Below, piece by piece: positions 49,650 through 64,000 of a stretch of 64,000 nucleotides of DNA. The notes below the pieces were generated by a model. It made no database searches, had not been told where the DNA came from, and was given only the letters and a program-made list of their open reading frames with translations. The position numbers and the translations under genes were made by a program. The DNA comes from an uncultured Alphaproteobacteria bacterium (GTDB taxonomy: Bacteria > Pseudomonadota > Alphaproteobacteria > Rhizobiales > Xanthobacteraceae): contig CAWKBE010000010.1 of assembly GCA_963847785.1 (NCBI GenBank), positions 66,831-130,830 of the forward strand. The letters are read 5' to 3'. How positions within the stretch are numbered: the stretch's first letter is position 1; each line of letters opens with the position of its first letter.

Positions 49650-49678
49650 TTGACATCGTTGGATAATTTGCCTATTGT
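49650..49678 (+). promoter_or_regulatory. sigma-70-like promoter upstream of the integrase gene
   Basis: TTGACA (49650-49655), 17-bp spacer, TATTGT (49673-49678); 35 bp upstream of the integrase ATG. Confidence 0.5.
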
Positions 49679-49712
49679 CGCGTCAATTGTTGCATTTTGT
49701 CGCGAGGATCGG

Positions 49713-50807
49713 ATGTCAATCAGAAAGCGCAGTTGGGAGGGCGGTGGCGAGCAGAAAACCGCATGGGTCGTCGATTATGTTGATCAGCACGGCAAGCGCC
49801 GGCTGAAGACGTTCGATCTGAAAAAGGATGCCGATGCGTGGGCGACGAATGCTCTGCACGAAGTCGCGCAGGGCATTCACGCGCGCGATGTTAAGACCGC
49901 TATCACCGACATTGTTGATGCGTGGATCAGCCATTGCATTGACGAGGGCCTGGAACGCAGCACCATCGAGCAGCGGAAGCGGCATCTGAAATTGCACATC
50001 GCCCCATTCATCGGGCGAGTGAAATTGAGTGAGCTGACGACGCCGATGGTCAACCACTACATGGATCGGCTCCGCGACGCCGGGCGCTCAGTTGCCATGC
50101 GCCGGAAGATCCTGACAAGCCTCAGCACCGCGCTATCGTTCGCCCGCGGCCGCGGACTTGTCGCGCAGAATGTTGCCCTAGGCATTAAGGTCCGGTCGGA
50201 TGATAGGCACAAGGCCACCGGCCCGCTCAAGGCCGGGCGGGATTTTCCAACCAAGGCAGAATTAAAACTCCTGATCGATCGCGCGCCGGAACGCTGGCGC
50301 CCCTTCATCGTCACCGCGATTTTCACCGGCATGCGCGCCAGTGAGCTGCGCGGGCTGCGTTGGTGCGATGTCGATCTCGACGCCGGAACTATCCACGTGG
50401 CGCAGCGCGCGGATACGTGGGGCAAAATGGGGTCCCCGAAGTCGGCTGCGGGGACTAGGGATATTCCGCTGACACCGATGGTCGTCAATACGCTCCGGCA
50501 ATTGGAATCCGGGGGCGAGCTGGTATTCATGAATAACGCCGGCCGGGTTATCGCCTATAGCAATTTTCACACGTATGTTTGGCAGCCGCTGATCAAGCAC
50601 TGCGGACTGAGTCACGAATTTCACAGCCTTAGACATGCAGCAGCGAGCCTGTTTATCGAGCAGTTGGGCTGGTCGCCGAAGCGTATCCAAGCTGTGCTGG
50701 GTCATTCGTCCATCACCATGACTTACGACAGGTACGGGCATCTGTTCGAGAGCAAGGATGATGGCACCGCGATGAAGCGGCTGGAAGCTGCGATCATCGC
50801 CGCCTGA
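49713..50807 (+). CDS. tyrosine-type site-specific recombinase (phage integrase family)
   Basis: 364 aa with an N-terminal SAM-like/arm-binding part and a catalytic domain with TGMRASELRGLRW (Arg I), HSLRHAAAS (H-x-x-R) and GHSSITMTYDRYGH (His/Tyr). Confidence 0.92.
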   Translation: MSIRKRSWEGGGEQKTAWVVDYVDQHGKRRLKTFDLKKDADAWATNALHEVAQGIHARDVKTAITDIVDAWISHCIDEGLERSTIEQRKRHLKLHIAPFIGRVKLSELTTPMVNHYMDRLRDAGRSVAMRRKILTSLSTALSFARGRGLVAQNVALGIKVRSDDRHKATGPLKAGRDFPTKAELKLLIDRAPERWRPFIVTAIFTGMRASELRGLRWCDVDLDAGTIHVAQRADTWGKMGSPKSAAGTRDIPLTPMVVNTLRQLESGGELVFMNNAGRVIAYSNFHTYVWQPLIKHCGLSHEFHSLRHAAASLFIEQLGWSPKRIQAVLGHSSITMTYDRYGHLFESKDDGTAMKRLEAAIIAA

Positions 50808-50879
50808 CCGCCGTTGCCCAACGTGTCATGCACTCTCTAAATTGGTTTATTTGCTTCCGTGGACGCACCTCACCCATCT

Positions 50880-50911
50880 TAAGTAAGTAAGTAAGTAAGT
50901 AAGACAGTAAG
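50880..50911. repeat. tetranucleotide microsatellite (TAAG)6 + ACAG + TAAG
   Basis: Six perfect tandem TAAG units at 50880-50903 and one more at 50908-50911, 73 bp after the integrase stop. Gives stop codons in all three forward frames. Confidence 0.95.
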
Positions 50912-51313
50912 ATAAACCCGAGCCGTGTCCGGTGGTGAGATCGGAGTGACTCGGAAAAGCAAGACTTAGGCACAGTGAAGCGCCTTTATCTGCTTTCCGA
51001 GGGACTGTCTGTCCGTATGGAGCCGACCGTCGCTTATCGGAAGCCGCCCGCTTTCTGGCTTGCGCGGACAAACTAGGGCGTCTTCTTCAAACAAGCCGTT
51101 TGCCAGTGGTGGGCACGCCCTCATCTTTCGATGAGCAAGACCCACGGCGCCTATCACTAGTCTCACCTAAGCGCCTCTCGGCCCGCAACTGCACGCCTTT
51201 TATAACGAGTAACGTCATTTTACAGGTGGGGCCCAAGATCAAAACCGATCATCGCGGCTCTGCTCGATTCGCGCCGCACCGTATGATCAACAAACGCCCG
51301 CGCGCGGCGCGCA

Positions 51314-51349
51314 ATGAAGCGGCTGGAAGCGGCAATTGTTGCGGCCTAG
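51314..51349 (+). pseudogene. orphan copy of an integrase gene 3' end (last 11 codons)
   Basis: ATGAAGCGGCTGGAAGCGGCAATTGTTGCGGCCTAG (MKRLEAAIVAA-stop) versus integrase 50772-50807 ATGAAGCGGCTGGAAGCTGCGATCATCGCCGCCTGA (MKRLEAAIIAA-stop). A stop lies 10 codons upstream, so only the tail survives. Confidence 0.7.
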
Positions 51350-51656
51350 AAATTTGCATTCGGTGCGATGCCGTGGTACCAAATTGGAGTCGGCATCCAC
51401 GCAAAGGGTGCCGGTCGGATGAACCTCGAGGACCGAAAGACGGATCGGGGCGAACGACAGTGCGGCACTCCAACGCCGCAAGGTAGGCTCCCGCCGACAG
51501 AAGGGGAGATCGGATGGTCGAGCCCGGACTAACCCAGCCGGAGCCATCCCAGCGAAAATCGGGTTAGCGATCGTCGTCCAAAGGCGGTCGGGCCATCCCA
51601 GCCTAGCGGGAATTGCGAAGCAGCAATTCATCACGCTTCCGGCCTGGGAGAATGTC

Positions 51657-51902
51657 ATGTCGCCGACCGTTGACCGCGAGCGAGATCGCGGGGAAACCCA
51701 ACTAAAGATGGTGTGGGGCGCCGCAGCCATCGGCGCCGTCATTAGCCGCGATCCCCGTCAAACCTATTACCTGCTGGAAAACGGCCTGATCCAAAGCGCC
51801 AAGCGGATCGGCAGGCAGTGGGTCGCCAACGAAGACGATCTGCGGCGCGAATTTTCAAACGCCCGCGACGAGACATGCGCGCCGGCGACGGTGCGGTCAT
51901 GA
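51657..51902 (+). CDS. excisionase/AlpA-like helix-turn-helix DNA-binding protein
   Basis: 81 aa with GGGAGA RBS. MVWGAAAIGAVISRDPRQTYYLLENGLIQSAKRIGRQWVANEDDLRREF fits the HTH_17/Xis pattern. Confidence 0.65.
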   Translation: MSPTVDRERDRGETQLKMVWGAAAIGAVISRDPRQTYYLLENGLIQSAKRIGRQWVANEDDLRREFSNARDETCAPATVRS

Positions 51903-52135
51903 GCGACGCTGTAGAGGTGGACGGCGAGCATACGGCTGTATTCTTCGGGCCCGGCGAGCAGCCGCTAATCGCCATCGAATATTACCCGGAAGCTGGAGTG
52001 TGGGGCTGGCATCTGGTGCAGCATCCAGACCTTGGCGCAGTTCCGTTCGACTCGAAAGAGGAGGCTATGGCGGACGCTAGCGCCGTCTTCGCCCGCTTCG
52101 GATGGCGCTGTGCCAGTTGGGGGTCGGCGCAATGA
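51899..52135 (+). CDS. hypothetical protein
   Basis: 78 aa. Its ATG overlaps the previous stop (ATGA). No recognisable domain. Confidence 0.5.
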   Translation: MSDAVEVDGEHTAVFFGPGEQPLIAIEYYPEAGVWGWHLVQHPDLGAVPFDSKEEAMADASAVFARFGWRCASWGSAQ

Positions 52136-52236: not shown

Positions 52237-52269
52237 TGCGCTGAAATCTATAAACCCTTGGTGCTCTTA

Positions 52270-53718
52270 ATGTTTCCAGAGCACGACGACCCGCTGACTT
52301 ACGAGGACCTGCAGGCGCTCGCCGCCGATCTCGGCCGGCCGTTGAAGACGCTATTTGCCCAGGCCGACTCCACTGACCCCTGGATGGCCGGAGTGCCGGC
52401 GCGCAAAGCCAAGGCGGAATGGCTCGCCGCTCTCTGGCGGCAATATGGCGCCGCTCCAGGAACGCACATCCGGCGCTTCCATTATTTGCTGGTCTCGCAA
52501 CCGGACGTGCGGATGCCGGAAGGCGAGCGCTACCTCAACACCGACGAGTGCTACAAATTTCTCACCGCTGCCTCAATCGCCGCGCGGCACCTCGACCTTA
52601 TCGACGCGCGCGACGTCGCCGACCAGCGCAACGAACCGGCAAAAATCAATTACGACGCCGAGGAGAAGGAGGCCGCGGTCGACGTCGATGGTGACCTTGA
52701 TCGATACGCGGCGCCGGAGTTCGAGCTCCCGACGCTCACAGTCACCGCGCCGAAGATCCCACAGCCCTATGTCGTCTCAATCTGGATCGAGAAGTCCACC
52801 ATGAACGACGTCATCGATCCGCTGGCCGCGCGCTACGGCGTCAACGTGCTCCCCGGTACCGGCGAGACCTCGATCACGCGCTGTATCGAACTCGCCGATC
52901 GTGCCGACGCGGTCGGGCGCCCTGTGCGCGTCCTCTACGTCACCGACTTTGATCCGGCCGGTCGGTCCATGCCGCTCGCGGCCGCGCGTAAGATCGAGTT
53001 TGAACTGCGCAAGAACATGCCCCACCTCGACGTCCAAGTACGCGATATCGCGCTGACGCTTGAGCAGTGTCGCCGATATCGTCTACCGCGGACGCCGATC
53101 AAGAAAGGCGAGAGCCGCGGTGCCAAATTCGAAGCGCGCTTCGGCGAGGGCGCAACCGAGCTCGACGCGCTCGAAGCACTACATCCCGGTGAACTGGCGC
53201 GGATTCTGGAACGCGAGATACTTCGCTATTACGACACCGATCTTGCCACCGAGGTTGAGAGCGTCAGGAGCGAAGCCCAGACCGAGCTCGGCCGCATCAC
53301 TACCGAGGTTCACGATCAGCACGTCGATCAGATCCAGGAATTGCGCGACGAGCACGAAAGGGTGCTGGCGGCGGTCAACGCCTACAGGGTAAAGGCGCGG
53401 CCGATCTTCGAGCTGATCCGGACCGACCTTGAGAGCGCGGCGCCGAGCTTCGATTGGCCCGATGGCAGTTTTGCGGCCGCCGAGGACGAAGACCCGCTGT
53501 TTGATTCAACGCGTGATTACATCGAGCAGATCGATCGTTACAAAGAACACAAGAACGAGCCGACCGAGCGCTGGTCCGAAACGCGCGTCTGCGCGCACTG
53601 CAAAGCAAAGTTCACCGCGCTCAAGAGCCACGCGCGGTTCTGCAGCAAAAAATGCGGCAATGATTGGCATTATCAGCAGCAGCCGTTAAAGCGGCAACGG
53701 AAGGCAGCGCGGCCATGA
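52270..53718 (+). CDS. Top6A/Spo11-like protein: putative 5Y-CAP + Toprim domains, coiled coil and C-terminal zinc ribbon
   Basis: HIRRFHYLLV (R-x-x-x-Y as in the Top6A/Spo11 catalytic Tyr motif, Tyr at 52483-52485). About 100 aa later comes VSIWIEKSTMNDV (Toprim Glu), LPGTGETSITRCIEL and VLYVTDFDPAGRSM (DxDPxG, 52945-52962). C-terminal CAHCKAKF...RFCSKKCGNDWHY. Start ATG 52270 (TTG 52258/GTG 52261 also possible). Confidence 0.55.
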   Translation: MFPEHDDPLTYEDLQALAADLGRPLKTLFAQADSTDPWMAGVPARKAKAEWLAALWRQYGAAPGTHIRRFHYLLVSQPDVRMPEGERYLNTDECYKFLTAASIAARHLDLIDARDVADQRNEPAKINYDAEEKEAAVDVDGDLDRYAAPEFELPTLTVTAPKIPQPYVVSIWIEKSTMNDVIDPLAARYGVNVLPGTGETSITRCIELADRADAVGRPVRVLYVTDFDPAGRSMPLAAARKIEFELRKNMPHLDVQVRDIALTLEQCRRYRLPRTPIKKGESRGAKFEARFGEGATELDALEALHPGELARILEREILRYYDTDLATEVESVRSEAQTELGRITTEVHDQHVDQIQELRDEHERVLAAVNAYRVKARPIFELIRTDLESAAPSFDWPDGSFAAAEDEDPLFDSTRDYIEQIDRYKEHKNEPTERWSETRVCAHCKAKFTALKSHARFCSKKCGNDWHYQQQPLKRQRKAARP

Positions 53719-54065
53719 CCCGGCGGCGCTCCCTGATCAACAAAACAGAGAGAACCATGACTAAAAAAGATGACCAACACATTTTGACCTATCGGGTGGG
53801 AAAATGGCCGATAGCTAAAAAAGATGACGTGTGGACCTATCGGCGGGTGAACCTAGCGCGCGAGAACCCCGAGAAGCCTGTCGTTGACGAGGATACCGGC
53901 GCGCGGATACCCGATCGCGAGTGCGTGACAGCTTCCGGGGCACTGCTGGCAACAGCACCTTGGCGGATGCGGGTGATTGCATTTTTCTACCTCAACTTTC
54001 TTCGGCTGCGCGGTCACGGCCTGAACCCCTTTTATTGGTGGTGGATTTTCAGGGGTAAACCGTGA
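53715..54065 (+). CDS. hypothetical protein with C-terminal hydrophobic helix
   Basis: ATGA overlap with the previous gene. 116 aa with an APWRMRVIAFFYLNFLRL helix. No known domain. Confidence 0.45.
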   Translation: MTRRRSLINKTERTMTKKDDQHILTYRVGKWPIAKKDDVWTYRRVNLARENPEKPVVDEDTGARIPDRECVTASGALLATAPWRMRVIAFFYLNFLRLRGHGLNPFYWWWIFRGKP

Positions 54066-54084
54066 AGACGTTTCGCGCTGCATA

Positions 54085-54288
54085 ATGACTAGTTTCAAAA
54101 TAGTGCCGCGGCCATGGCTGAGCCCGGAGTTACTAGCGGCCTACGCCGCCTTTGATGACGCCGAGACGCCGGCGGAGCTCGACGCCGCCTATGATGCACA
54201 TTGGTCCCGCATCACGATCCCCGAGGAGCAACTTAGCTTCGAACTTCAGTACATCTTCGAGGTCGAGCGCATGGGTTACATATTATGA
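54085..54288 (+). CDS. hypothetical small acidic protein
   Basis: 67 aa, Asp/Glu-rich (AAFDDAETPAELDAAYDAH...IPEEQLSFELQYIFEVE), immediately upstream of the RNAP gene. Confidence 0.45.
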   Translation: MTSFKIVPRPWLSPELLAAYAAFDDAETPAELDAAYDAHWSRITIPEEQLSFELQYIFEVERMGYIL

Positions 54289-54376: not shown

Positions 54377-56722
54377 GTGCCTGGTAAGGGCCATATTCGG
54401 GGCTGGAATCGTAAGCGGAAACAGCGCCGCCTAGCCGCCGACGTACGACTTTCCGTTGAGCTGTTCGGCCAGTACTTGGCCGACTTCCTCTCCCAGCCGC
54501 CAGTGGATGACGTGGAGGCACAACGGGACGAATGGCGGCCCACACGGCCGCCTGGAGATTTGGGTGCGTTGGTGTCCAAGTTAGAGCCGTCTGACCTAGC
54601 GCAGGCGGTATTGGCACCACTTTTACACCGTATTCATTCGGGTTGGGCGGGCGGCAAAATCAAGAAAGGCCAGCGCGACCGTCACCGCGCCGAACTGTGT
54701 GAGATCGTTGGGCGCCATGTCCACCGGCTTTTATTGTATCGGCATTTGATCGAGACCGGCACGCACCGACCCCTATTGGCCGCAATCACCAAACCCAAGC
54801 GCCGCAAGTATCCCAAGGGTGCGCCGCGGCCACCGCGCGGGCGACCGAAGAAGGTTCGAACGGCCTTTCAATTTGATGATTGGGTTGACATTGACTTCGT
54901 CTATGTCGGCGACTGGTTGGTTGACTGCGCCACGAGTCTCGACTGCTTTGACTTCAACGAATACGGGCTTCCTTGCATTGCCGAGCATTGGAAGGCGGAA
55001 ATTCGCGACCTGTACCGTGAGGCGCTTCGCGGGCCTATCACCGTACTGCCGAGGCGGGAGCCGCCACCGTTACGTACTGGGTGGTACAACGACCGAGGTG
55101 TGGCGTTCTGCAACCGCCTTGAGGCACGCGAGGCTATTGATGACGCCTTCAAGAAGACCATCACCATACTCGACGAGAGCAGGATTACGTTTAACGAGAA
55201 CCTGGAAGCGAACAAGGAAAGCATGGTTGAGACCGAAGTCCCCGGCGATTTCGTTAGGCAGCACGTTGCCGGCATCCACGCCTTGGAGTGCGTGCCGCTG
55301 CGTATCGATCCGCTAATGCGCGATCTGGTAGAGCAGTTTGGCACCGATGCTAAGAAGCGTCGAAAGATTGGCTGGAAGCTGGAGCGTGACCGCTTCGCCG
55401 TTCGCGGCGATCTTGACCATGCCGATGCGCTCGGCGAAGAAACCTTTCATATCGAATATGGGGTTGACTACCGCGGCCGGCTTGATCCCGTGACACATCT
55501 CCACTTCGCTCGCGACGATCGCATCCGCAGCCTGTTCCGGTTTGCCAACGGCAAGCGGTTAGGTGGGCGTCTCGCCGGGCGAGCAGGTGGTTTCACCGAT
55601 CTAGAAATGTTGGAGTTCAACATCGCTAACCGTTATGGCGTCGTCGACAAGAAGCCGTGGGCTGATCGACTAGCGTGGGTACGCGAGCACGCCGGCATGA
55701 TCGAGGAGGTCGCGGCGCGGCCATTCAGTTCGTCCAGTTTGTGGTCGAAGGCAGACGAGCCGTTTCAGTTCGTCAGTGCGTGCCGTGAGTGGATGGCGGC
55801 GCGCGAGGACCCTAACTTTGAGACAACACTGCCACTCTGTTGGGACGGAAGTTCTAATGGTTTTCAGCACAAAGTTATGCTCTCCCGCGATCACGAGGGT
55901 GCTGTTTACGTCAACCTGGTTAACGCCCCGTCTGGCCAACCGCAGGATATTTACCTGCACGTTGCCAAAGGCGTCATCGAGAAACTGCATGAGACCACCG
56001 ACAAGGAGGCGGCGTGGTGGCGCGAGCGTATTGGCAATTGGTCGCAACAGGATTTGCGAAAACTATTTAAGCAGCCGGTCATGACGATTCCCTACAACGC
56101 CGACCGCAGTATCCCTTCAGGCATATCGAAGGCGCTTCAGTCCATAGACCGGGGTGAGAAGCCACCGGACGGTCATGCGGGATATCTACAACGGATGATG
56201 ATGGGTGTTGTTCAAGATTTGATGCCGCGCGCCATGGAGCTGCGGTCGTGGATAACAAAACTCGCCACCCAGTGCAGTATTGAGGGGCGCTATGTCAAAT
56301 GGGTTAGTCCCAGCGGATTTCCGGTTGAGAACCACCACGAGACGCTCTCAATTGGATGCGTCTACGGTATAGATGGCACAAAATTCAACGTCACCAAGCC
56401 CGGTGGACTTGATACCGTAGGCTGCGTGAATGGCCTCGTTCCTAACTTTATTCACTCGCTGGAAGTTGCACATTTAGTTCGGGTTGCGTGTGCCACAAAG
56501 GCGGAGGGTATCGAAACGCTACCACTCCACGACTGCTACGCCGCCCTGGCGCCAGACGGCAGCGCCCTGCACCGGATTATTCGGCGCGAGTTGTTTCTGA
56601 TGTACCGTGAAAGAGACTACATCCACGAGCTGCGCGCCGCCAACGGTGTGGTGATGCCACTGCCACCATACGGGGATCTGAACCTCGAACTCATACCTGA
56701 CGCAGAATACAGTTTTGCTTGA
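54377..56722 (+). CDS. single-subunit DNA-dependent RNA polymerase, T7/T3/SP6 (phage-type) family
   Basis: 781 aa. LPLCWDGSSNGFQHKVMLSRD...VNLV...QDIYLHVAKGV (motif A). RKLFKQPVMTIPYN (motif B). KWVSPSGFPVENHHE, VPNFIHSLEVAHL, LPLHDCYA (motif C), and tail PLPPYGDLNLELIPDAEYSFA versus T7 ...PALPAKGNLNLRDILESDFAFA (T7 sequence from memory). Confidence 0.93.
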   Translation: MPGKGHIRGWNRKRKQRRLAADVRLSVELFGQYLADFLSQPPVDDVEAQRDEWRPTRPPGDLGALVSKLEPSDLAQAVLAPLLHRIHSGWAGGKIKKGQRDRHRAELCEIVGRHVHRLLLYRHLIETGTHRPLLAAITKPKRRKYPKGAPRPPRGRPKKVRTAFQFDDWVDIDFVYVGDWLVDCATSLDCFDFNEYGLPCIAEHWKAEIRDLYREALRGPITVLPRREPPPLRTGWYNDRGVAFCNRLEAREAIDDAFKKTITILDESRITFNENLEANKESMVETEVPGDFVRQHVAGIHALECVPLRIDPLMRDLVEQFGTDAKKRRKIGWKLERDRFAVRGDLDHADALGEETFHIEYGVDYRGRLDPVTHLHFARDDRIRSLFRFANGKRLGGRLAGRAGGFTDLEMLEFNIANRYGVVDKKPWADRLAWVREHAGMIEEVAARPFSSSSLWSKADEPFQFVSACREWMAAREDPNFETTLPLCWDGSSNGFQHKVMLSRDHEGAVYVNLVNAPSGQPQDIYLHVAKGVIEKLHETTDKEAAWWRERIGNWSQQDLRKLFKQPVMTIPYNADRSIPSGISKALQSIDRGEKPPDGHAGYLQRMMMGVVQDLMPRAMELRSWITKLATQCSIEGRYVKWVSPSGFPVENHHETLSIGCVYGIDGTKFNVTKPGGLDTVGCVNGLVPNFIHSLEVAHLVRVACATKAEGIETLPLHDCYAALAPDGSALHRIIRRELFLMYRERDYIHELRAANGVVMPLPPYGDLNLELIPDAEYSFA

Positions 56723-56730
56723 GGAATCGC

Positions 56731-56946
56731 ATGACAAGAGTTCAACAAATAATCGATCAGCTCGAAGAGTTGCATCGGCAAGCGCACGAAATCTTCGACG
56801 CGCGCGTTGAGGTTATTTTAGCCGGACAACCCTATGGTACGAGTCTCGGCGCAACCAAGGTGAATTGCATCTTTGCGCCGGCTGGACGGACGCTCGACTA
56901 CATCAAGGCGTTGAAGAACTTGCGGGACGGAAAGACCGCAAAGTAG
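56731..56946 (+). CDS. hypothetical protein
   Basis: 71 aa from ATG 56731, just after the RNAP stop (MTRVQQIIDQLEELHRQAHEIF...). Followed by a strong hairpin. Confidence 0.45.
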   Translation: MTRVQQIIDQLEELHRQAHEIFDARVEVILAGQPYGTSLGATKVNCIFAPAGRTLDYIKALKNLRDGKTAK

Positions 56947-56972
56947 CCGCCTACAATAGTTCATCCAGTAAC

Positions 56973-56995
56973 AAGGCCCGCCTCGCGCGGGCCTT
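56973..56995 (+). terminator. stem-loop terminator candidate
   Basis: AAGGCCCGC-CTCGC-GCGGGCCTT, a perfect 9-bp stem 27 nt after the stop at 56946. Only a weak T tract follows (CGCATTTCTG). Confidence 0.5.
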
Positions 56996-57086
56996 CGCAT
57001 TTCTGCGTCAACCGACGCGGAAACACGCCGGCATTGTGTCGGCATTCTAAATCAACGGCCCTGCAGCACGGGGCGATGGTGGACCT

Positions 57087-57251
57087 ATGCATTACATCAA
57101 TCTTAGCAGTGGGCGCTGTCTGCATTGCGAAGCCACTGCGTTCCGATCAACGAAAACCCTGGCTTATTGCTTGGTGTGCGGCGTTCTCTTTAGGCGCTCG
57201 CACGAGCCGAGCCAGCTTGCATTCAATCTAACCTCTTTGGCCTCTACCTGA
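57087..57251 (+). CDS. possible small zinc-ribbon protein (54 aa)
   Basis: MHYINLSSGRCLHCEATAFRSTKTLAYCLVCGVLFRR... with CxxC-x13-CxxC. Not in the track (<60 aa) and no clear RBS. Confidence 0.25.
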   Translation: MHYINLSSGRCLHCEATAFRSTKTLAYCLVCGVLFRRSHEPSQLAFNLTSLAST

Positions 57252-57324
57252 GGCGAAACGTTGTCGCGCGCCCGGTGCCGCTCGACGATGCGTTTAATGC
57301 ACCGAATCACGAAAGCAGAAAACC

Positions 57325-57972
57325 ATGTCAACTAATGAAGAAGCTATGCCTTGGGCCTTAACCGAGGTTCAATCTAAAGCAATAACGGATCGTCAGATCG
57401 CGAAAGCACTCGCAAAGTTTGCCGAAGATGACGGTGGTGGTCCCGGTGGACCGTTGCTCAAGTTCAAGAAGGACGAACATTTTATTCTCGGCGCCGACAA
57501 GATTGCGGAGGGCACCGAGTACATTGCCCATCCGCAAGAAGTCCGTAAGGGCTGGAGTAAGTTCGAGAACAAAAAGCTCGTCGACGAAAAGACCGGCAAG
57601 CCGGTTCTCGGGTTTGTCGTTCCCGAGCGCGAGGAGTTGGGCGATCTCGACCCCAAGAAATGGCCGAAGAACGACGCGGGCCAACCTGCTGATCCGTGGG
57701 TGAAGCAGTCGTTCTTGCCATTGGAAAACGTTACGACCGGACAACTGGTTGTGTTCGTGACGAGTTCCCATGGCGCTCGCAGTGCGATCGCGACCTTGTG
57801 CGGAGCGGCCGCGCGGAATGTCCATCGCGGCAATCCGCGCATTCGCCTTCGCGTCGGTTCCTACAAACACTCGAAATTCGGGCGTGTTCAGGTGCCGGAA
57901 TTCACGGTGATTGGTTGGGACGATCCGCCCATCTCTGCGGACGAGCCGTTCAACGACCAATTGTCTCTGTAA
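57325..57972 (+). CDS. hypothetical protein (positional candidate for a phage ssDNA-binding protein)
   Basis: 215 aa, coding-like, with an acidic/aromatic C-terminal tail ISADEPFNDQLSL. Lies between RNAP and DNAP where T7-like phages carry gp2.5. No motif-level support. Confidence 0.5.
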   Translation: MSTNEEAMPWALTEVQSKAITDRQIAKALAKFAEDDGGGPGGPLLKFKKDEHFILGADKIAEGTEYIAHPQEVRKGWSKFENKKLVDEKTGKPVLGFVVPEREELGDLDPKKWPKNDAGQPADPWVKQSFLPLENVTTGQLVVFVTSSHGARSAIATLCGAAARNVHRGNPRIRLRVGSYKHSKFGRVQVPEFTVIGWDDPPISADEPFNDQLSL

Positions 57973-58006
57973 CTAACTAATCTATCTTTGTTCAACAGCG
58001 TGCGCG

Positions 58007-58025
58007 GGGAGTTTAGGAAACTCCC
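58007..58025 (+). terminator. short stem-loop after ORF 57325-57972
   Basis: GGGAGTTT-AGG-AAACTCCC, preceded by the all-frame stop string TAACTAACTAA (57970-57980). Confidence 0.35.
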
Positions 58026-58052
58026 TTCGCCGCCAACCATGTGAGCTTTGAA

Positions 58053-58661
58053 ATGTCGATAATTACCTCAACATCCTCATCCACCGCAGCGCCGATTAAC
58101 GTATTCGATTTCGAGGCGATCAGATTACCGCCGAACTTTGAACGCGAAGCCGGTGTGCGCAAGCAACTCACGCTGGTGCGGGTCCGCCAGCCGCGAAAGC
58201 AGGAATGGGTTCGAGTTCATCCGGAGCATCGCGCCGAAGTGGCCACGATTGTCTTCAAGGAGAACGAAGAAGCCAAGCCGGAGATCTACCTGGTCGCACC
58301 GGACGTCGCGATGCAACTGAGCGACGAAATTACCTATCAGACGATTTACCTCGCAATCAATCGGCAGGGTGAACCGTTCCTCTGGCCATGCCGCAAACCG
58401 AAATTAGAAAGCCGAAGCGGCGATATCGCTGCGACGTCAAGGATCGAAGCCGCCGAGACGGCCATGACGCGCCAAGTGCGGGTGCAGTGGCGATCGCCGG
58501 CTTTCGAGATGTCATTCCGCGATGGCCACATCCCCGATGTCGATCCGATTTGGCCAGACAAGCCTTTCGGTGAGCTGGTCGAGATCGCGTTTCATCGTAC
58601 CGGAATGTTCATCCACGACCCTAATCATCAGGTGATCAAGATTTTGCAGGGGAGAAACTAA
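58053..58661 (+). CDS. hypothetical protein
   Basis: About 202 aa (ATG 58053; GTG 58041 possible). Its stop is 1 nt before the DNAP start. No recognisable domain. Confidence 0.5.
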   Translation: MSIITSTSSSTAAPINVFDFEAIRLPPNFEREAGVRKQLTLVRVRQPRKQEWVRVHPEHRAEVATIVFKENEEAKPEIYLVAPDVAMQLSDEITYQTIYLAINRQGEPFLWPCRKPKLESRSGDIAATSRIEAAETAMTRQVRVQWRSPAFEMSFRDGHIPDVDPIWPDKPFGELVEIAFHRTGMFIHDPNHQVIKILQGRN

Positions 58662-58662
58662 T

Positions 58663-60390
58663 ATGATTCTCCCTTACAAACACATCATTGCAGTCGACTT
58701 CGAGTTTGAATTTGGCGGCCATGAAGGCAATCCGCCGCGACCGGTCTGCATGGTCGCGAAGGAGCTACGTACGGGCCAAGAATGGCGGGTGTAGCGCGGG
58801 GACTTCGGGCCCTCGCCTCCGTTCCCTACCGGGCCGGACAGCTTGTTTGTAGCGTACTACGCTAGCGCGGAGTTAGGTTGCTTCCACGCACTCGGCTGGC
58901 AACCGCCGGCGAACGTGCTCGATCTCTTCACCGAATTCCGGGCACGCACTAATGGCACCGATTGGCTGGAGGGCCGCAGTCTGATCGCCGCCCTACAGTA
59001 TTTTAACGTCGACGGCATCGGCGCCACCGAGAAGCAAGGCATGCGCGAGCTAGTCCTTAGAGGGCCACCATGGACCGAACAGCAGCGCGCCGACATTCTG
59101 GATTACTGCGCCAGCGATGTTTACGCTCTCGAACGTCTACTGCCGCGGATGCTGCCCGAGATTGATCTGCCCCGTGCGCTCCAGCGTGGGCGCTATATGC
59201 GAGCGGCGGCGGCGATGGAATATGCCGGCGTGCCGATCGACGTCGATACGCTTAAGGAGCTACGCGATCATTGGGAGGATATAAAGGAACAACTGATCGC
59301 CGATGTTGATCGGGACTACGGCGTGTTCGACGGTACCACTTTTAAGACGACGCTATTCGAGGAATATCTAATAAGACAGGGCATCCCGTGGCCGCGATTG
59401 CCGTCTGGGCGTTTAGCTCTTGACCGCGACACCTTCAAAGAAATGGGCCGCGGCTATCCAATCATCGGCCCATTAAGGGAGCTAAAGCATGCGCTGAGCG
59501 AAATGCGATTGAACGCACTCCAAGTCGGCGAGGATGGCAGGAATCGGTGTTTGCTCAGCGCGTTTGGCACAAAGACTGGAAGAAATAGTCCGAGCAATAC
59601 GAAATTCATTTTTGGTCCCAGCGTATGGCTGCGTGGGTTGGTTAAACCGGAGCTCGGGCACGCAGTCGCCTATATCGATTGGAGTTCACAAGAGGTCGGC
59701 ATCGCCGCGGCGGTGTCTGGCGATTTGGCGATGCAATCCGATTACCAAAGCGGCGATGTTTATCTCGCGTTCGGTAAGAGTGCCGGAATCCTGCCACTGG
59801 ATGCCACCAAGGAGTCACATGGCGCGCAACGTGATGCATTAAAGGCGTGCGTACTGGGGCTTCAATACGGCATGGGCGAGGAAACATTGGCGGAACGGAT
59901 CGGCAAGCCGCGCATCGTTGCCCGCGAATTAATACGCGCGCATCAGCAGCGTTACCGGAAATTCTGGGACATGGCTGACAGCGTGATTTCGATCGCGATG
60001 GATCACCGTCCCGTGCAGACGGTAGGCGGTTGGCCCCTACAGGTCTGCTCTGATCCGAGCCCGAACTCGGTGATGAATTTTCCCATGCAAGCCAATGGTG
60101 CCGAGATGCTCCGGCTGGCCTGCTCCATGGCGACAGAGCGCGGTGTCGAGGTGCATGCCCCCGTCCACGACGCGGTGCTGATCGGCAGTTCGATTGAGCA
60201 CATTGATCGCGACGTCGAGGCCATGCGCGGGATTATGGAGGAGGCGTCCCGGCTGGTATTGGGCGGCTTCACCATTCCGACCGAAGCCAAGATCATCCGC
60301 TATCCCGATCGCTACATGGACAAGCGCGGTGTGGTGATGTGGGAGCGCGTGATGCGGTTACTTGCCGATCTGCGCAAGGCGGTGGCGTGA
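58663..60390 (+). pseudogene. family-A DNA polymerase with 3'-5' exonuclease domain, interrupted by one in-frame amber codon (58792-58794)
   Basis: ATG 58663 MILPYKHIIAVDFEFEFGG (Exo I) ...QEWRV-TAG-RGDFG...FVAYYASAELGCF (Exo II), YCASDVYAL (Exo III). Pol motif A AYIDWSSQEVGIAA, motif B RDALKACVLGLQYGMG, motif C VHAPVHDAVL. Same frame on both sides of the TAG. Confidence 0.85.
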
Positions 60391-60770
60391 TGGCCGCAGA
60401 TTGGGAAATCACGCCGGACATGGCGAAGGATATCCGGCGGAGCCGCCGACCTAAGCACAAGGAGGAGCTGTTTGCGAAGCTATGGCGCTGGCATTTGCAC
60501 TTGTTGCTAGAGAAGCGCGCCGGCGGCCGGATGCTTCGGCTTTTCCTTGTGCTTGTGGATGAGGACTTCAATCATTTCGGAAAGCCGTTCACGGTCACTA
60601 CCGATATGGCCGAGAGGGCGGGCGTGGATCGCCACTTGAAGGCAAAAATCCTGCTCGCCTTAGAGCAGTGGGGTCTCATTTTTCTAGAGCGTCTGGGGGC
60701 TCCCAAGAACCCGAGAGTGTCCCTGCGACAACGGGAAGGGAGGGGGCAAAACCCGTTTCAATGTGGATGA
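60390..60770 (+). CDS. hypothetical protein, possibly winged-helix DNA-binding
   Basis: 126 aa. Its ATG overlaps the DNAP stop (TGATG). TTDMAERAGVDRHLKAKILLALEQWGLIFLER looks wHTH-like. It precedes the iteron-like repeats. Confidence 0.45.
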   Translation: MAADWEITPDMAKDIRRSRRPKHKEELFAKLWRWHLHLLLEKRAGGRMLRLFLVLVDEDFNHFGKPFTVTTDMAERAGVDRHLKAKILLALEQWGLIFLERLGAPKNPRVSLRQREGRGQNPFQCG

Positions 60771-60783
60771 AACAACACCAGTA

Positions 60784-60850
60784 ATGTGGTCATTCCAAAC
60801 CACCTATGTGGTCATTCCAAACCACCTATGTGGTCGAAACACTACCACCC
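60784..60850 (+). repeat. tandem direct repeats (2 perfect 22-bp units + 1 degenerate unit), iteron-like
   Basis: ATGTGGTCATTCCAAACCACCT at 60784-60805 and 60806-60827, then ATGTGGTCGAAACACTACCACCC at 60828-60850. Confidence 0.9.
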
Positions 60851-60914
60851 GTAAGAGGTGGTTCCGGTTGTCTGAACAGATTTTCCGCGTCGATAAGTGG
60901 AGTCTCTGCCGGGG

Positions 60915-61742
60915 TTAGGCTGCCAAGCGGACTGGCAGTTCGTTGAAGTAGGCTTGATCGGGTGTGGTGCCGTCAAGGCTCGAATGCGGTCTCCGGCCGT
61001 TGTAGAAGTCCAGGTATTTGCCGATAGAAGAGCGGGCCTCGCTGACACTGTCGTAGGCCTTCAGATACACCTCCTCATATTTGACGCTGCGCCACAGCCG
61101 CTCGACGAAGACGTTGTCTCGCCAAGCTCCTTTCCCGTCCATGCTGATCGCAATGTCGTTGTTGGCGAGCACGCCGGTGAACGCCGAGCCCGTGAACTGC
61201 GAACCCTGATCGGTATTGAAGATGTCCGGCTTGCCGTGACGAGCCAGAGCATCCTCCAGCGTCTCGACGCAGAATGCCGCCTCCATCGTGATCGACAGCC
61301 GCCATGACAGCACGCGACGGCTGAACCAGTCGAGCACCACGGCCAGGTAGACGAAGCCCCGCGCCATCGGGATGTAGGTGATGTCCATCGCCCACACCTG
61401 GTTCGGCCGCGTGACCGCCGTGGCGCGCAACAGATACGGATAGATCTTGTGGCCGGGCCCGGGCTTCGTGGTGCGCGGACGGCGATAGAGCGCCTCTATC
61501 CCCATCCGTTTCATCAGCGTTTTGACATGCCGACGGCCGATCTTGCACCCCTCAGCGACCAGCAAGCCTCTCAACATCCGCGAGCCGGCGAAAGGGGACT
61601 CCAAATGCAGCCGGTCGAGACGCCGCATGATTGCGAGGTCGGCTTCCGGTACTGGGCGCGGCAGGTAGTAGACGCTGCCACGGCTGATGCACAGAACGTC
61701 CGCCTGCTTGGTGATCGGCAAATTGTGCTCACGGTCGATCAT
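60915..61742 (-). CDS. IS3-family transposase OrfB (DDE integrase-like catalytic domain)
   Basis: WAMDITYI (D), FNTDQGSQFTG (D), DNVFVERLWRSVKYEE (E), and RPHSSLDGTTP. Confidence 0.92.
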   Translation of the reverse strand: MIDREHNLPITKQADVLCISRGSVYYLPRPVPEADLAIMRRLDRLHLESPFAGSRMLRGLLVAEGCKIGRRHVKTLMKRMGIEALYRRPRTTKPGPGHKIYPYLLRATAVTRPNQVWAMDITYIPMARGFVYLAVVLDWFSRRVLSWRLSITMEAAFCVETLEDALARHGKPDIFNTDQGSQFTGSAFTGVLANNDIAISMDGKGAWRDNVFVERLWRSVKYEEVYLKAYDSVSEARSSIGKYLDFYNGRRPHSSLDGTTPDQAYFNELPVRLAA

Positions 61743-62050
61743 CGCTTTGCGCTCAGCAATCCCGCCTTGCTGAGCGCTCCTTCCAAAAAATCGTTCTCCA
61801 GCGTCAGCGCTCCGATCTTGGCGTGCAACGACTTCACGTCAACGGCCGGTTGCGCTGCTCCGTTGCCGCCGCCGGGACCAAAAACATCGGCAGCCCCACC
61901 CTCAAGCTGCGCCTTCCACGATGTGATCTGGTTGGGGTGGACGTCGAACTGCTCTGCCAGCTGAGTCAATGTTCGATCGCCCTTGACGGCGGCAAGCGCC
62001 ACCTTTGCTTTGAAGGCCGGTGTGTGGTTCCGGCGCGGTCGTCTTGTCAT
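61739..62050 (-). CDS. IS3-family transposase OrfA (HTH)
   Basis: MTRRPRRNHTPAFKAKVALAAVKGDRTLTQLAEQFDVHPNQITSWKAQL. ATG 62050 chosen over the track start at 62104. Confidence 0.9.
   Translation of the reverse strand: MTRRPRRNHTPAFKAKVALAAVKGDRTLTQLAEQFDVHPNQITSWKAQLEGGAADVFGPGGGNGAAQPAVDVKSLHAKIGALTLENDFLEGALSKAGLLSAKR
61749..61790 (-). promoter_or_regulatory. programmed -1 ribosomal frameshift signal of the IS (slippery T TTT TTG + hairpin)
   Basis: On the minus strand, GAT TTT TTG is followed 6 nt later by GCGCTCAGCAA-GGCGGGA-TTGCTGAGCGC (perfect 11-bp stem, 61749-61777). The -1 frame reads without stops into the OrfB ATG (..FFGRSAQQGGIAERKAMIDREH). Confidence 0.7.
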
Positions 62051-62334
62051 GGTCTCTCCTGATTCGCGGCGCACAGCGTGCCCGCCGTCAGGCAGAAACT
62101 CCACTTAGCGTCTTGTGCAGATTTCCGAGGCCACCTCTGTATCCCTGTCTTATGTCTTGGGTCTTAGCTTATGTCTTTTGTCAAACAAACCGCGCGGCGA
62201 AGTGCGCTGGCTTACTGCTTCCAGAATTCTTATTGGACCACCCGCGAGACGAACCGCCGGGCTACTCACGACCGCGGGATCAAGCCCGGCGGCATTCGGG
62301 ATCGGGCGCGCCGGCGAATAAGCAGGAGGCGCCC

Positions 62335-62775
62335 GTGAACGTCATCGAGGCCTACAGGCTGCGAATGCGCCTCGTGGCTGCCGGCCACATCCCAGCCCCG
62401 ATGCACAATGGCAGGGCCGTGGAGATCCCGCACCAGATGCCCGGCAAATCCTGTGTGCGCGGCTGGGCGACGCTGCATGAGAACGCCACCGAGACCGGCA
62501 TTGTTGATCTTGAGACGCGCCGGGTGACCTTGGTTACCGCAGTACCCGCATCTGCGGCCGAACTACAGGCCATGCGCGCCATCCGGCAGCGGACCAAGAA
62601 CCAGCAGAGGCTGGAGGCCCGGCGCCGGCAAAAAGGCATTCCTGAGCGCGCTGCGTGGCTCCAAGCCCATAGCCAGGACCGGGGCGAACCTTGGAAGAAA
62701 CTCAATATGAGCCGACCCAAATGGTATCGGCTGGGGAAGCCGGATCCGGGTGAGACGGGTGCAACCACACTCTAA
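62335..62775 (+). CDS. hypothetical protein
   Basis: 146 aa from GTG 62335 preceded by AGGAGG. The C-terminal ...PWKKLNMSRPKWYRLGKPDPGETGATTL resembles tails seen in Rhizobiales prophage/island proteins. The track start at 62020 lies inside the IS. Confidence 0.5.
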   Translation: MNVIEAYRLRMRLVAAGHIPAPMHNGRAVEIPHQMPGKSCVRGWATLHENATETGIVDLETRRVTLVTAVPASAAELQAMRAIRQRTKNQQRLEARRRQKGIPERAAWLQAHSQDRGEPWKKLNMSRPKWYRLGKPDPGETGATTL

Positions 62776-62822
62776 ATACCCCGCCCCGCCCTCCCTAGAC
62801 AGCCTGTTCAAACCACCAAAAC

Positions 62823-62838
62823 AGTTTCCAAGGAAACT
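62823..62838. promoter_or_regulatory. palindromic operator-like site
   Basis: AGTTTCC-AA-GGAAACT (7-bp arms), 6 bp upstream of ATG 62844. Confidence 0.35.
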
Positions 62839-62843
62839 ATTAC

Positions 62844-63338
62844 ATGGCACGAGATGAAAACGCGGTGATCATCCGCAGTGCGTTGAGGTTCTTGTATGGA
62901 CCTGCCCGCCGATCTGGCGGCCGGACGCCGTATCGATCACACCGCGCGCGAGAAACGGCGCTGAAACATCGGCCGTGGGAGCGCGGCAGAATTGGCGCCA
63001 TTGAACAGGCCGTGCATCGGGAGCTGGTATTGCACGGGGATATGCTAACCGGCGCGCTGGCGAGGGCGGTTTACATCGAGCGGTGGAGGGCTCCAGGCGA
63101 GCCGGCACCCACACTAAAACCATGGATGCGGGACCGCATAAAGATTGCCGCGCGCACCTTTGCGGATCCCGTCGCCCGATCGCGCGGCCCCGGCAGACCC
63201 TGGCTCTGGCGACTTCGATCGGATCAGAATTATTTCCATGAGGTCCGCAAGCGTAAGGGTGAGCGTGACACAGCCTGCCGCGAGGAAATTCGTAGCCGGA
63301 CGCAACAAGCACGCAACACGGCTTTAAAATCCGATTAA
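62844..63338 (+). CDS. hypothetical protein
   Basis: 164 aa, Arg-rich, no recognisable domain. Followed by hairpin GGTGTT-GCAG-AACACC. Confidence 0.45.
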   Translation: MARDENAVIIRSALRFLYGPARRSGGRTPYRSHRARETALKHRPWERGRIGAIEQAVHRELVLHGDMLTGALARAVYIERWRAPGEPAPTLKPWMRDRIKIAARTFADPVARSRGPGRPWLWRLRSDQNYFHEVRKRKGERDTACREEIRSRTQQARNTALKSD

Positions 63339-63576
63339 TTTCAAGGTGTTGCAGAACACCACTGGATACTAAATCCCGTTACTAGCGATCGTGTGTGTCC
63401 GAATCCACGGTTTTGGGCTCGAGCGGCTCAGGGTAACCAGAACGCGGGGAATGGTCCCGAAACCCTTATTTTACGGGCCCCAAAACCAGCCCTTTAGAGC
63501 TGACAATACCTCTTGCCGATTTTAACGCACATGGACCCCGTCCCTGGGGGTCTGGCGCCATTCAAGGAAAATATAG

Positions 63577-63798
63577 ATGTCTATCGACAGTAAGAATTTG
63601 GTCTGGGACGGCCTCGAGCTGCGCCTAGGCACCCAGCGCGGCCGGATCGTCGCCACCGTCATTTCCGACGCCAAATGGCCCGGCATGTGGCGGGTTCAAA
63701 TCGACGGCAAGCTCACCGATGTGGTTAATATAACGCGTGCCAAGGATGCGGCGATCGCGCTCGCGCTTGCCGATCTGAAGCAACGTAGGGCGGCGTAG
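63577..63798 (+). CDS. hypothetical small protein
   Basis: 73 aa. The motif AKWPGMWRVQIDGKLTDVVNITRAKDAA resembles small proteins I recall from Rhizobiales mobile regions. AAGGAAAA RBS-like sequence upstream. Confidence 0.5.
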   Translation: MSIDSKNLVWDGLELRLGTQRGRIVATVISDAKWPGMWRVQIDGKLTDVVNITRAKDAAIALALADLKQRRAA

Positions 63799-64000
63799 GA
63801 TAGCAGTCGATCGCCTGACAGACCAACCTATACCGCAACCTTTCAACCCCTGCCGGGTGTCGATGGCATAAAGGCGATCCGGACTCTTATTGAAAGCAGC
63901 CCAACGTCACTATCGCCTACGCTGCGTGTCGGTTGTCGAGACACCATCAGCCCAATCCACGTCAACTTGAAGTAGTCGCCTACGGCATGATTGATCGACG

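Follow-up and report, generated by a model that had tools for sequence, protein, structure and literature searches.

A probable family of small, capsid-less integrative replicons with a single-subunit RNA polymerase and a family-A DNA polymerase in alphaproteobacterial and metagenomic DNA

Single-subunit RNA polymerases (ssRNAPs) of bacteria are regarded as a hallmark of the T7-like and N4-like phages, and small integrative elements with a DNA polymerase (DNAP) of their own are, to our knowledge, known only with family-B enzymes (the pipolins and casposons). Both kinds of enzyme occur together in the linear mitochondrial plasmids of fungi and plants, which encode a T7-superfamily RNA polymerase (RNAP) too and form a minimal 'own DNAP + own RNAP' replicon; these plasmids are linear, organelle-resident and equipped with terminal proteins, and their DNA polymerases, like those of pipolins and casposons, are protein-primed or primer-independent members of family B. 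Here we analyse a stretch of 64,000 nt from an uncultured alphaproteobacterium (contig CAWKBE010000010.1; the whole stretch is called the window), whose last part, from about 49.65 kb onward, is probably a member of a family of small integrative replicons that have no capsid. This member measures ~13 kb when its insertion sequences (ISs) are excluded. With pipolins, casposons and mitochondrial plasmids it shares the plan of a small selfish element that encodes its own DNA polymerase, and unlike them it has a family-A polymerase with a putative 202-aa partner, iterons and a tyrosine integrase, and resides in bacteria.

The initial annotation, made from the sequence alone, had described a co-oriented gene block of lowered GC content, likened its order to that of T7-like podoviruses, and named a non-viral integrative replicon as its fallback. 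The descriptive part holds: from ~49.65 kb to the window end the credible genes, those of one IS excepted, lie on the + strand, about 82% of the non-IS DNA consists of open reading frames (ORFs) on that strand, the stop-start overlaps (ATGA, TGATG) are real at 53715 and 60390, and GC drops from 0.643 before position 49638 to 0.586 after it. It is the fallback that is supported, and it can now be described as a family, that is, a recurrent gene set without virion genes. Exact-protein look-ups located the window in several ENA metagenome assemblies of soil type, which extended it rightward by ~10 kb; comparison loci are designated below by L numbers. The core of the element, in which SSB denotes a single-stranded DNA-binding protein, wHTH a winged helix-turn-helix and dN/dS the ratio of nonsynonymous to synonymous divergence, comprises the following features:

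54377-56722, + strand: single-subunit (T7-superfamily) RNAP, 781 aa (PF00940 207 bits, cut-off 22; phrog_414 E 7e-94)
56731-56946, + strand: 71-aa RNAP-paired protein (90% mean column identity across 5 elements; dN/dS 0.06-0.09)
56975-56993, + strand: terminator-like GC hairpin GGCCCGC..GCGGGCC with T-rich tail (invariant columns in a 6-element alignment)
57159-57172, + strand: copy 1 of the motif CTGKCTTAYKKCTT, candidate element-specific promoter or binding site (pattern match)
57325-57972, + strand: predicted 215-aa SSB of the phiC31 gp3/TG1 gp25 type (structure model and Foldseek)
58053-58661, + strand: p202, putative 202-aa PolA partner (adjoins PolA; 398 clusters)
58663-60390, + strand: family-A DNAP (PolA) with 3'-5' exonuclease domain, 575 codons (PF00476 63 bits, cut-off 34)
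60390-60770, + strand: 126-aa putative winged-helix origin-binding protein (profile weakly matches MarR/SlyA wHTH, E 0.009)
60784-60835, + strand: iteron-like array, 22 bp x 2.4 (100% matches in Tandem Repeats Finder; x 5.4 in the sister assembly L005)

The same compact gene set was found in at least six independent metagenomic loci (L012, L013, L014, L015, L016 and L017), in which an integrase and variable early ORFs, where present, are followed by RNAP (~780 aa), the 71-aa gene, a ~215-aa gene, a ~202-aa gene, PolA (574-575 aa), a ~126-aa gene, repeats and distal ORFs; some copies have an extra ORF of 61 or 77 aa between the 71-aa and ~215-aa genes. Integrase types are swapped between copies, the window and L014 having a 364-aa SAM_3 enzyme, L012 and L015 Arm-DNA-bind_3 enzymes of 419-462 aa, and L017 one of 391 aa. 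In L012 about 11 kb lie between the integrase at the contig start and a YkuD gene that is presumed to be host DNA. Synonymous sites are near saturation between copies (synonymous divergence, dS, of ~1 or more), and dN/dS ranges from 0.06 for PolA to 0.17 for RNAP. The module is a selected unit, because such low dN/dS between copies is not expected from independent prophage decay. Pfam searches of the called genes found no helicase-primase, portal, capsid or terminase, which agrees with what had been noted within the window and extends it to ~10 kb beyond. Rightward extension, up to 10 kb past the window, contained no capsid, portal, terminase, tail or lysis gene; the missing structural module was thereby upheld, and attR, which the same extension might have supplied, did not appear.

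With the integrase-bearing T7-like phages (Autographiviridae, such as Caulobacter phage S2B and Pseudomonas phage LUZ100) the element shares a tyrosine integrase at its end, an early promoter-specific ssRNAP, co-oriented downstream replication genes that include an SSB and a family-A DNAP, and a terminator after the early operon. Unlike these phages, it lacks gp4 primase-helicase, gp6 exonuclease, portal, capsid, tail and terminase; its DNAP is not of the T7 gp5 type and its predicted SSB is gp3/gp25-like rather than gp2.5-like; its RNAP is ~100 aa shorter, has no RPOL_N match and is far more divergent; and it has an iteron-type origin and a size of ~13 kb against 40-45 kb. We searched by tblastn (E 1e-4) with nine core proteins of T7 and S2B (SSB, primase-helicase, DNAP, exonuclease, portal, capsid, tail tube A, tail tube B and large terminase) through the window, its extension, L001, L005, L012 and L014-L017, and none of the nine matched either the element or its six relatives, so that the podoviral identity suggested by the gene order was not sustained. 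The replication-set queries detect at least one protein in 26 of 80 genomic ssRNAP loci. These 80 (L032-L111) were kept from 128 confirmed ssRNAP loci that a single motif scan of GTDB species representatives returned, and 36 of them have T7/S2B-like core genes within 10 kb, which contradicts the view that resident loci of this sort are uncommon. Many of the 36 belong to Alphaproteobacteria, and Sphingomonas, Brevundimonas, Bradyrhizobium, Caulobacter and Ralstonia are among their hosts. In the other 44 chromosomal or metagenome-assembled-genome (MAG) loci, some of them on short contigs, no replication or structural gene of the T7/S2B kind turns up within 10 kb. MAGs of Obscuribacterales, Planctomycetales and Acidobacteriota are among them, and part of this set may represent additional elements that carry an RNAP and are not phages.

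The ssRNAP itself had been recognised correctly, the 207-bit PF00940 score being accompanied by catalytic motifs A, B and C that can be read in the translation (CWDGSSNGFQH, RKLFKQPVMTIPYN and LHDCY), a C-terminus ending in YSFA, and an alignment to POLRMT that spans these motifs. The identical protein is present on 5 contigs, and dN/dS for the RNAP is 0.12-0.17. Identity to phage RNAPs is 23-33% over at most 79% of the protein length. Against T7 RNAP the score of the window enzyme is 100 bits and against human POLRMT 138 bits; the RNAP of S2B reaches 417 bits with T7 and 283-322 bits with the mitochondrial enzymes. By these scores the window RNAP is a remote lineage and not a mitochondrion-like one, because the enzyme of an ordinary phage such as S2B scores far higher to both T7 and the mitochondrial enzymes. 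A rough neighbour-joining (NJ) tree of 386 columns, from which the L065 entry is to be disregarded since it came from the wrong ORF, groups it with short metagenomic RNAPs and L032, apart from T7/S2B and from POLRMT; the separation of this clade is what the tree contributes, and its deep nodes are weak (52-54%). Both scores being remote and the tree placing it apart, the proposed bearing of the locus on an origin of mitochondrial polymerases from a prophage is not supported. A mitochondrial affinity, considered at the outset from the higher score to POLRMT than to T7, was dropped after the S2B comparison and the tree.

Close relatives of the RNAP are few, with ~10 at 67-86% identity among 5.8 billion clustered proteins, and an exhaustive HMMER search added ~50 representative RNAPs of 710-830 aa that align near end to end at 33-40% identity. 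The close alignment A1, run against genome, viral and metagenome collections, gave no confirmed match in any of them; the broader alignment A9 succeeded for genomes. Two of the relatives at 33-40% identity had visible context (L032 and P0225), and both sit in small integrative elements. L032, from an uncultured alphaproteobacterial MAG, has an integrase, RepB-primase/DUF5906, a resolvase and RNAP, and P0225, whose RNAP is 38% identical to that of the window, has RNAP, a 70-aa gene 3' of it, AAA_25 and an integrase. A homologue of the 71-aa protein (45% identity) also lies 3' of RNAP in L183, where the pair is found downstream of the PolA module and not upstream. The RNAP-71 aa pair behaves like a cassette that different integrative elements without a capsid have in common, since the L032 and P0225 RNAPs are accompanied by other replication modules and the L183 pair occupies another position. 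The 14-nt motif CTGKCTTAYKKCTT has 3 matches in the 64 kb against 0.06 expected, all on the + strand, intergenic and inside the element, copies 2 and 3 being at 62145 and 62207.

Downstream of the hairpin lie the replication proteins. The 215-aa family comprises 72 clusters and has no Pfam domain; its consensus ends in DEIPF, like the C-terminal tip of SSBs, and the window protein itself ends in ...DQLSL. An AlphaFold model (pLDDT 85) gave as its top match in the PDB the chain 9teh_I, a phiC31 integrase-gp3 fusion (Foldseek probability 0.99, E 0.012, TM 0.34), followed by bacterial OB-fold SSBs. The gp3/TG1 gp25 family of recombination directionality factors consists of functional SSBs that double as directionality factors, and TG1 gp25 binds single-stranded DNA (PMC11795197). 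From the model we predict that the 215-aa protein is the SSB of the element, because it matches both the gp3 fusion and OB-fold SSBs, because of the DEIPF consensus tip, and because of the published DNA binding by gp25. A homologue of 235 aa (38% identity) is encoded in a separate small island (L019/L020, 10001-14800) directly upstream of a Toprim_3/AAA_25 primase-helicase, together with a PDDEXK protein, a 57-aa ORF and an integrase.

The p202 gene was followed in JGI metagenome contigs (L114-L193), and in those with enough sequence to score adjacency (n=45) it is directly upstream of PolA in all but three (42/45). Since PolA follows it so regularly, we regard p202 as an obligate partner of PolA. 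The p202-PolA module was confirmed in 471 stretches of JGI metagenomes from soil and other sources. A model of p202 (pLDDT 88) has no match among PDB folds and in BFVD matches only unnamed or uncharacterised phage proteins; the 215-aa, 202-aa, 126-aa and Toprim proteins (the last described below) had no significant match to PDB sequences. The DNAP had been named correctly as an exonuclease-bearing family-A enzyme, with the reservation that the 515 aa assigned to it are the tail of a 575-aa gene broken by a stop codon. The frame opens at 58663 (MILPYKHIIAVDFEFEF, with the ExoI motif) and an in-frame TAG, for which relatives have TGG, lies at 58792-58794 after codon 43. Polymerase motifs DWSSQE, RDALKACVLGLQYG and VHDA and exonuclease motifs DFEFE and YCASD are readable. 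Intact orthologues of 574-575 aa occur in L012, L015 and L016, and PolA has a dN/dS of 0.06. The TAG is common to the window, L002, L003 and L006, and L001 and L005 have TGG and a frameshift at codon 1. The best phage matches of PolA are actinophage Pol I enzymes (22-25% identity), with one local match of 44% to a Silvanigrella phage. Of the phage records, the latter (L021, CP017838.1) alone gives a notable local match to this clade; the alignment (44% over 151 aa) is split over the two ends (42814-43266 and 9-329) of an unannotated 43-kb 'partial genome'.

A putative origin lies directly beyond PolA. The annotation of a wHTH-like ORF followed by iteron-like repeats proved right and extends to relatives, with the proviso that the wHTH match is weak (E 0.009). 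The 126-aa protein has no match in Pfam, PHROG or NCBIfam, including Rep_3 and other Rep families, and is the most divergent and fastest-evolving core protein (22-60% identity, dN/dS 0.12-0.34). In every copy examined (the window, L005, L012, L015, L016 and L183) an array of 21-23-bp repeats stands by the end of this gene, and the unit sequence is specific to each element: ATGTGGTCATTCCAAACCACCT in the window (2.4 copies, 5.4 in L005), TTAGTGGGTGAAATACCCCTCT in L012 (3.6 copies), a 23-mer in L016 (4.3 copies), a 21-mer in L015 (2 copies) and a 21-mer in the distant L183 (2.5 copies). Arrays start from within 10 bp of the end of the small ORF (L012 and L016) to 21 bp from it (L183), and that of L012 overlaps its last 11 nt. 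A putative pair of iterons and initiator fits this arrangement, since the repeats differ in each copy and track the adjacent, fast-evolving protein. Tandem repeats of 16-23 bp were also seen in L130 (a few hundred nt beyond PolA) and in L140/L141 (~0.8 kb beyond PolA). The remaining features of this side of the element are:

60854-62138, - strand: IS3-family IS (orfA 61739-62104, HTH_Tnp_1; orfB 60915-61742, rve)
62142-62182, + strand: conserved post-iteron block CCCTGTCTTATGTCTTGGGTCTT... with TGTCTTA heptamers (same block in L012 and L016)
62335-62775, + strand: 146-aa conserved element protein (homologues 3' of the 126-aa gene in L012 (56%), L013 and L016)
62844-63338, + strand: 164-aa conserved element protein (homologues in L012 (43%) and L013)
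63577-63798, + strand: 73-aa conserved element protein (homologue in L016 (49%); weaker in L019, L176 and L181)

In L012 and L016 the conserved block (containing CACCCGTACCCCGTCTTATGTCTTGGGTCTT) directly follows the iterons, and in the window the IS3 element sits exactly between the two. It is bounded by inverted repeats and a 3-bp target duplication (GTA) on both sides, and its removal restores the L012/L016 sequence. The ORFs after the DNAP had been taken for generic island genes, a view that must be given up because homologues of the 146-, 164- and 73-aa proteins are encoded at the equivalent place in other copies. The copy in the window has probably lost its activity, because the IS3 element stands between the iterons and the conserved block and PolA has an amber codon at position 44. 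A second IS after the last conserved ORF and an orphan integrase 3' end at 51310-51347 are further marks of decay.

The arrangement resembles that of iteron theta plasmids (R6K, pPS10, RK2, P1/F type) in that the gene of a small DNA-binding protein, here a putative one, stands beside 21-23-bp tandem direct repeats, in that repeat and protein diverge together, and in that repeat copy number varies. It differs from them in that its 126-aa protein has no Rep-family match, in being integrated by a tyrosine recombinase, and in bringing its own DNAP, SSB and RNAP, whereas iteron plasmids rely on host DnaA, DnaB, DnaG and Pol III. By functional analogy only, it also resembles POLRMT, POLG and mtSSB of mitochondria, with an ssRNAP, a family-A DNAP with an accessory subunit, an SSB and, likely, RNAP-made primers; unlike that system its RNAP has no specific sequence affinity and there is no Twinkle-like helicase.

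Such an element might work as follows. Transcription by host RNAP would cover an early unit, which we propose to run from the integrase through the early genes to the RNAP-71 aa pair because of a sigma-70-like promoter at 49650-49678 and the invariant hairpin after the 71-aa gene. The operon of SSB, p202, PolA and the 126-aa gene, like the distal ORFs, would next be expressed by the element RNAP from promoters of its own, and the 126-aa protein would bind its cognate iterons and mark the origin. A transcript made by this RNAP beside the iterons might prime leading-strand synthesis by PolA with p202; an RNAP-made primer is proposed because the element has no primase or helicase, and the primary origin of T7 and mitochondrial DNA are precedents for priming by an RNAP transcript. 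The SSB would coat the displaced strand, and its tail, which resembles an SSB C-terminus, may recruit host factors. Taken jointly these steps would define a so far unrecognised class of self-transcribing and self-replicating bacterial mobile replicons, in which a promoter-specific ssRNAP both expresses the element and primes an iteron origin, PolA with its 202-aa subunit and SSB extends the primer without a primase or helicase of the element's own, and RNAP-71 aa is a moving cassette. We offer this joint picture tentatively, and as a whole consider it rather unlikely. Were it true, the element would be a free-living bacterial counterpart of POLRMT/POLG logic.

A number of observations weigh against the interpretation as a capsid-less, RNAP-primed integrative replicon. 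The evidence base consists almost wholly of noisy metagenome assemblies, and the differences between assemblies are concentrated in core genes, which hints at consensus chimerism. No circular or excised form of the element was seen. No direct att repeats of 13 nt or more exist between the left end and 11 kb of sequence on the right side; what L026, an element-free contig, has to the right of the junction was not found within 20 kb of the occupied locus, and low GC persists for ~4 kb past the second IS. Motif C of PolA (60160-60185) reads VHDA instead of the canonical VHDE in the window, L005 and L012, for what is a predicted polymerase, and the wHTH assignment of the 126-aa protein goes back to a match of E 0.009. 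With respect to priming, that replication is RNAP-primed we purely infer; a search for a repeated RNAP promoter within the element yielded no convincing shared motif, and the other elements lack the CTGKCTTAYKKCTT pattern, which was itself defined post hoc. Moreover, most p202-PolA loci contain neither RNAP nor the 215-aa SSB, so RNAP may be dispensable for replication. Among these, the minimal relative L172 consists of a 486-aa gene, p202, PolA, a 140-aa gene, Xis and Int between host genes, and L141 has Int ... p202, PolA.

Other explanations of the block concern what it derives from, what it does and how it moves. That it is a decayed temperate T7-like (Autographiviridae) prophage, stripped of its structural genes and left with an early and DNA-metabolism region, would account for the co-oriented integrase, ssRNAP and replication genes, superficially like those of Caulobacter phage S2B, and for the two ISs, the PolA stop and the orphan integrase fragment of the window copy. 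It does not account for a gene set that recurs under purifying selection, which is not a product of random decay, nor for the fact that T7/S2B SSB, primase-helicase, DNAP, exonuclease, portal, capsid, tail and terminase are unmatched in all related loci. The nearest phage DNAPs are those of actinophages (Pol I) and the Silvanigrella phage and not of Autographiviridae, and the RNAP has 100 bits to T7 where that of S2B has 417; we consider this origin highly improbable. Equally remote in our estimation is a domesticated or defence island, whose polymerases would have been retained in the service of the host, against phages or in stress (by abortive synthesis, for example). At the locus RNAP, SSB and p202 are indeed intact, whereas all assemblies checked have a lesion in the 5' end of PolA; PolA itself is matched by the PADLOC model RTasPolA (E 3e-20), and the Top6A-like Toprim protein of the early region presumably resembles nuclease modules of defence systems. 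The PADLOC match, however, reflects generic PolA homology and no other protein matches PADLOC, the integrases, iterons and multiple genomic contexts speak for a selfish replicon, and the lesions are better explained by recent inactivation.

A phage satellite, that is, an island induced and packaged by a helper phage, is a possibility that we take more seriously, although we still think it improbable. On this account its own RNAP, DNAP and SSB would let the element work while a virulent or T7-like helper stops host RNAP and degrades host DNA; it concerns the route of transfer and is compatible with a replicon. In common with P4-like and PICI satellites and mobilizable islands, the element has a compact size (11-16 kb), an integrase and a possible Xis/AlpA-like helix-turn-helix (HTH) protein, a replication module in co-oriented operons and no virion genes. 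Relatives of its RNAP and SSB sit in satellite-like islands beside AAA_25 or RepB-primase/DUF5906 genes, and primase-helicase modules of that kind occur in P4-like and PICI-type islands. Helpers would be at hand, given how common T7-like prophages are in related taxa of soil and freshwater. Unlike these satellites, it has no recognised packaging or capsid-remodelling genes: no capsid-size redirection, small-terminase, cos/pac or helper-sensing genes, and no markers of P4-like, PICI, cfPICI, PLE or PICMI satellites, were recognised in general PHROG, Pfam and PADLOC scans, for which no dedicated satellite-marker library was used. The six small conserved ORFs have no PHROG or Pfam match, no relative of the RNAP turned up in IMG/VR viral contigs, and no helper was identified. 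We found no description in the literature of a satellite family with an ssRNAP or a family-A DNAP, nor of elements such as the present ones, which does not prove that none exists.

If the block is indeed one of a family of integrative replicons, the range of polymerase-carrying elements would widen to a capsid-less family that joins an ssRNAP, a family-A PolA with a new partner, a gp3-type SSB and an iteron origin. The large uncharacterised PolA/p202 module (471 matches in soil and other metagenomes) opens testable biochemistry, and the short, very divergent RNAPs, which presumably have new promoter specificities, could furnish orthogonal expression tools. For annotation the lesson is that a chromosomal 'ssRNAP + integrase' is not automatically a T7-like prophage. 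To the question of mitochondrial origins the data add only one more deep ssRNAP lineage.

The left side of the element, with its integrase and variable early region, comprises these features:

49639-49652, no strand: left end of the element (junction interval, from element-free contigs and L014)
49650-49678, + strand: sigma-70-like promoter TTGACA-17-TATTGT (best consensus match in the region, 10/12; kept in L014)
49713-50807, + strand: tyrosine integrase, 364 aa (PF00589 76 bits, Phage_int_SAM_3, phrog_1 E 1e-71)
51310-51347, + strand: orphan duplicate of the integrase 3' end (AMKRLEAAIVAA and stop; 38-nt direct repeat of 50768-50805)
51657-51902, + strand: 81-aa ORF, possible Xis/AlpA-like HTH (HTH_17 E 0.022; gene call in all assemblies)
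51875-52135, + strand: 86-aa ORF of the variable early region (called gene; no family match)
52270-53718, + strand: Top6A-like Toprim protein with C-terminal Zn-ribbon, 482 aa (phrog_6247 'DNA topoisomerase' E 3e-26, residues 169-354)
53715-54065, + strand: 116-aa ORF (called gene; ATGA overlap with the Toprim gene)
54085-54288, + strand: 67-aa ORF (called gene)

That the block is foreign and linked to an integrase, as had been supposed, is supported by a junction mapped against element-free contigs and by a second copy elsewhere. Identity between the window and the element-free contigs L026, L027 and L029 is 99.6-99.7% next to the junction, and the match reaches 49638, 49636 and 49598, respectively, beyond which L026 continues into different genes and L027 and L029 simply end; L014 is a second copy of the same element in unrelated context, whose homology begins at 49653. 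Comparison with element-free sequence thus defined the left junction and did not provide attB with a clean empty site. The integrase starts 60-75 nt from this junction, which places a tyrosine recombinase at the end of the element. Short-word BLAST and fuzzy k-mer comparison of the left end (48-51 kb) with 9-20 kb of L005 gave chance-level matches only, as did the same approach for the post-junction DNA of L026 against the occupied locus, and there are no tRNA, tmRNA or Rfam elements in the window that could serve as an integration target. To the right of the 73-aa ORF is the second, inverted IS3-family copy, 85% identical to the first, and beyond it are genes for a GAF-guanylate cyclase, PhyH, AsnC, AraC and metabolic enzymes, of which the cyclase, PhyH and AsnC genes may be either host genes or cargo. 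In L005 the GC content is 0.53-0.60 across GAF-guanylate cyclase, PhyH and AsnC (12504-16400) and recovers after ~16.4 kb; because it stays low that far, the foreign island may be larger than the conserved element. In L016, a diverged copy, a fragment at 8547-8681, ~480 nt after the 73-aa-like ORF, shows 73% identity to ~50 residues at the very end of the guanylate cyclase found beside the window-type element, which could reflect a shared target gene, shared cargo or coincidence.

In the early region the integrase was identified correctly, its R...HxxR...Y residues being visible in the translation, and the start was misplaced, the gene being called at 49713 and not at the TTG at 49650. Sigma-70-like sites overall are not above the chance count, so the promoter at 49650-49678 is a lead only. 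The duplicate of the integrase end, 542 nt downstream, covers the last 12 codons and the stop with 82% nucleotide identity (11/12 aa by tblastn); related elements that lay in tandem or recombined may have left it as a scar. A (TAAG)8 microsatellite at 50880-50911 lies between the integrase end and this duplicate. For the ORF labelled Xis-like HTH the gene call stands, and the HTH assignment does not go beyond a sub-threshold HTH_17 match (E 0.02, below the Pfam cut-off). The recognition of a Top6A/Spo11-like Toprim protein is supported by phrog_6247 (E 3e-26), its sole match, there being none in Pfam; IEKST and DFDPAG motifs are visible, and the C-terminus is HNH/NinG-like. It is confined to window-type copies and missing from L012, L015 and L017, which makes it accessory rather than core, and in L012 a ParB-like protein takes its position. 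An ORF of the same length (67 aa) and in the same place, directly upstream of RNAP, is found in L012 too.

Four assemblies (L004, L007, L014 and L024) are ~100% identical to the window across the integrase and Toprim regions and differ from it within 54377-60390 by 50-250 substitutions, with indels in addition, which are patchy in RNAP, the 215-aa gene, p202 or PolA. Such patchy differences in core genes are due either to chimeric long-read consensus with paralogous elements or to gene conversion between co-resident elements. Independent pseudogenisation, considered from the differing gene breaks of sister assemblies, was discarded as unsafe since the differences are patchy within core genes, and the lesions retained are the TAG in PolA and the IS insertion only.

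The chromosomal site behaves as an integration or rearrangement hotspot, because L025 and L026 carry other content at the equivalent place: from 11789 to 13200 (~window 49041 onward) L025 has a different 206-aa integrase fragment and then ABC_sub_bind genes, and L026 has an HNH gene and a branched-chain ABC transporter. Relative to L025, L026, L027 and L029 the window is without ~405 nt at 48902-48906, within a DUF4142/ECF-sigma cluster, and relative to L025 and L026 it has an extra 648 nt at 37995-38642. This loss and this gain, seen against near-identical contigs, account for the belt of decayed host genes that the initial annotation had described beside the element.

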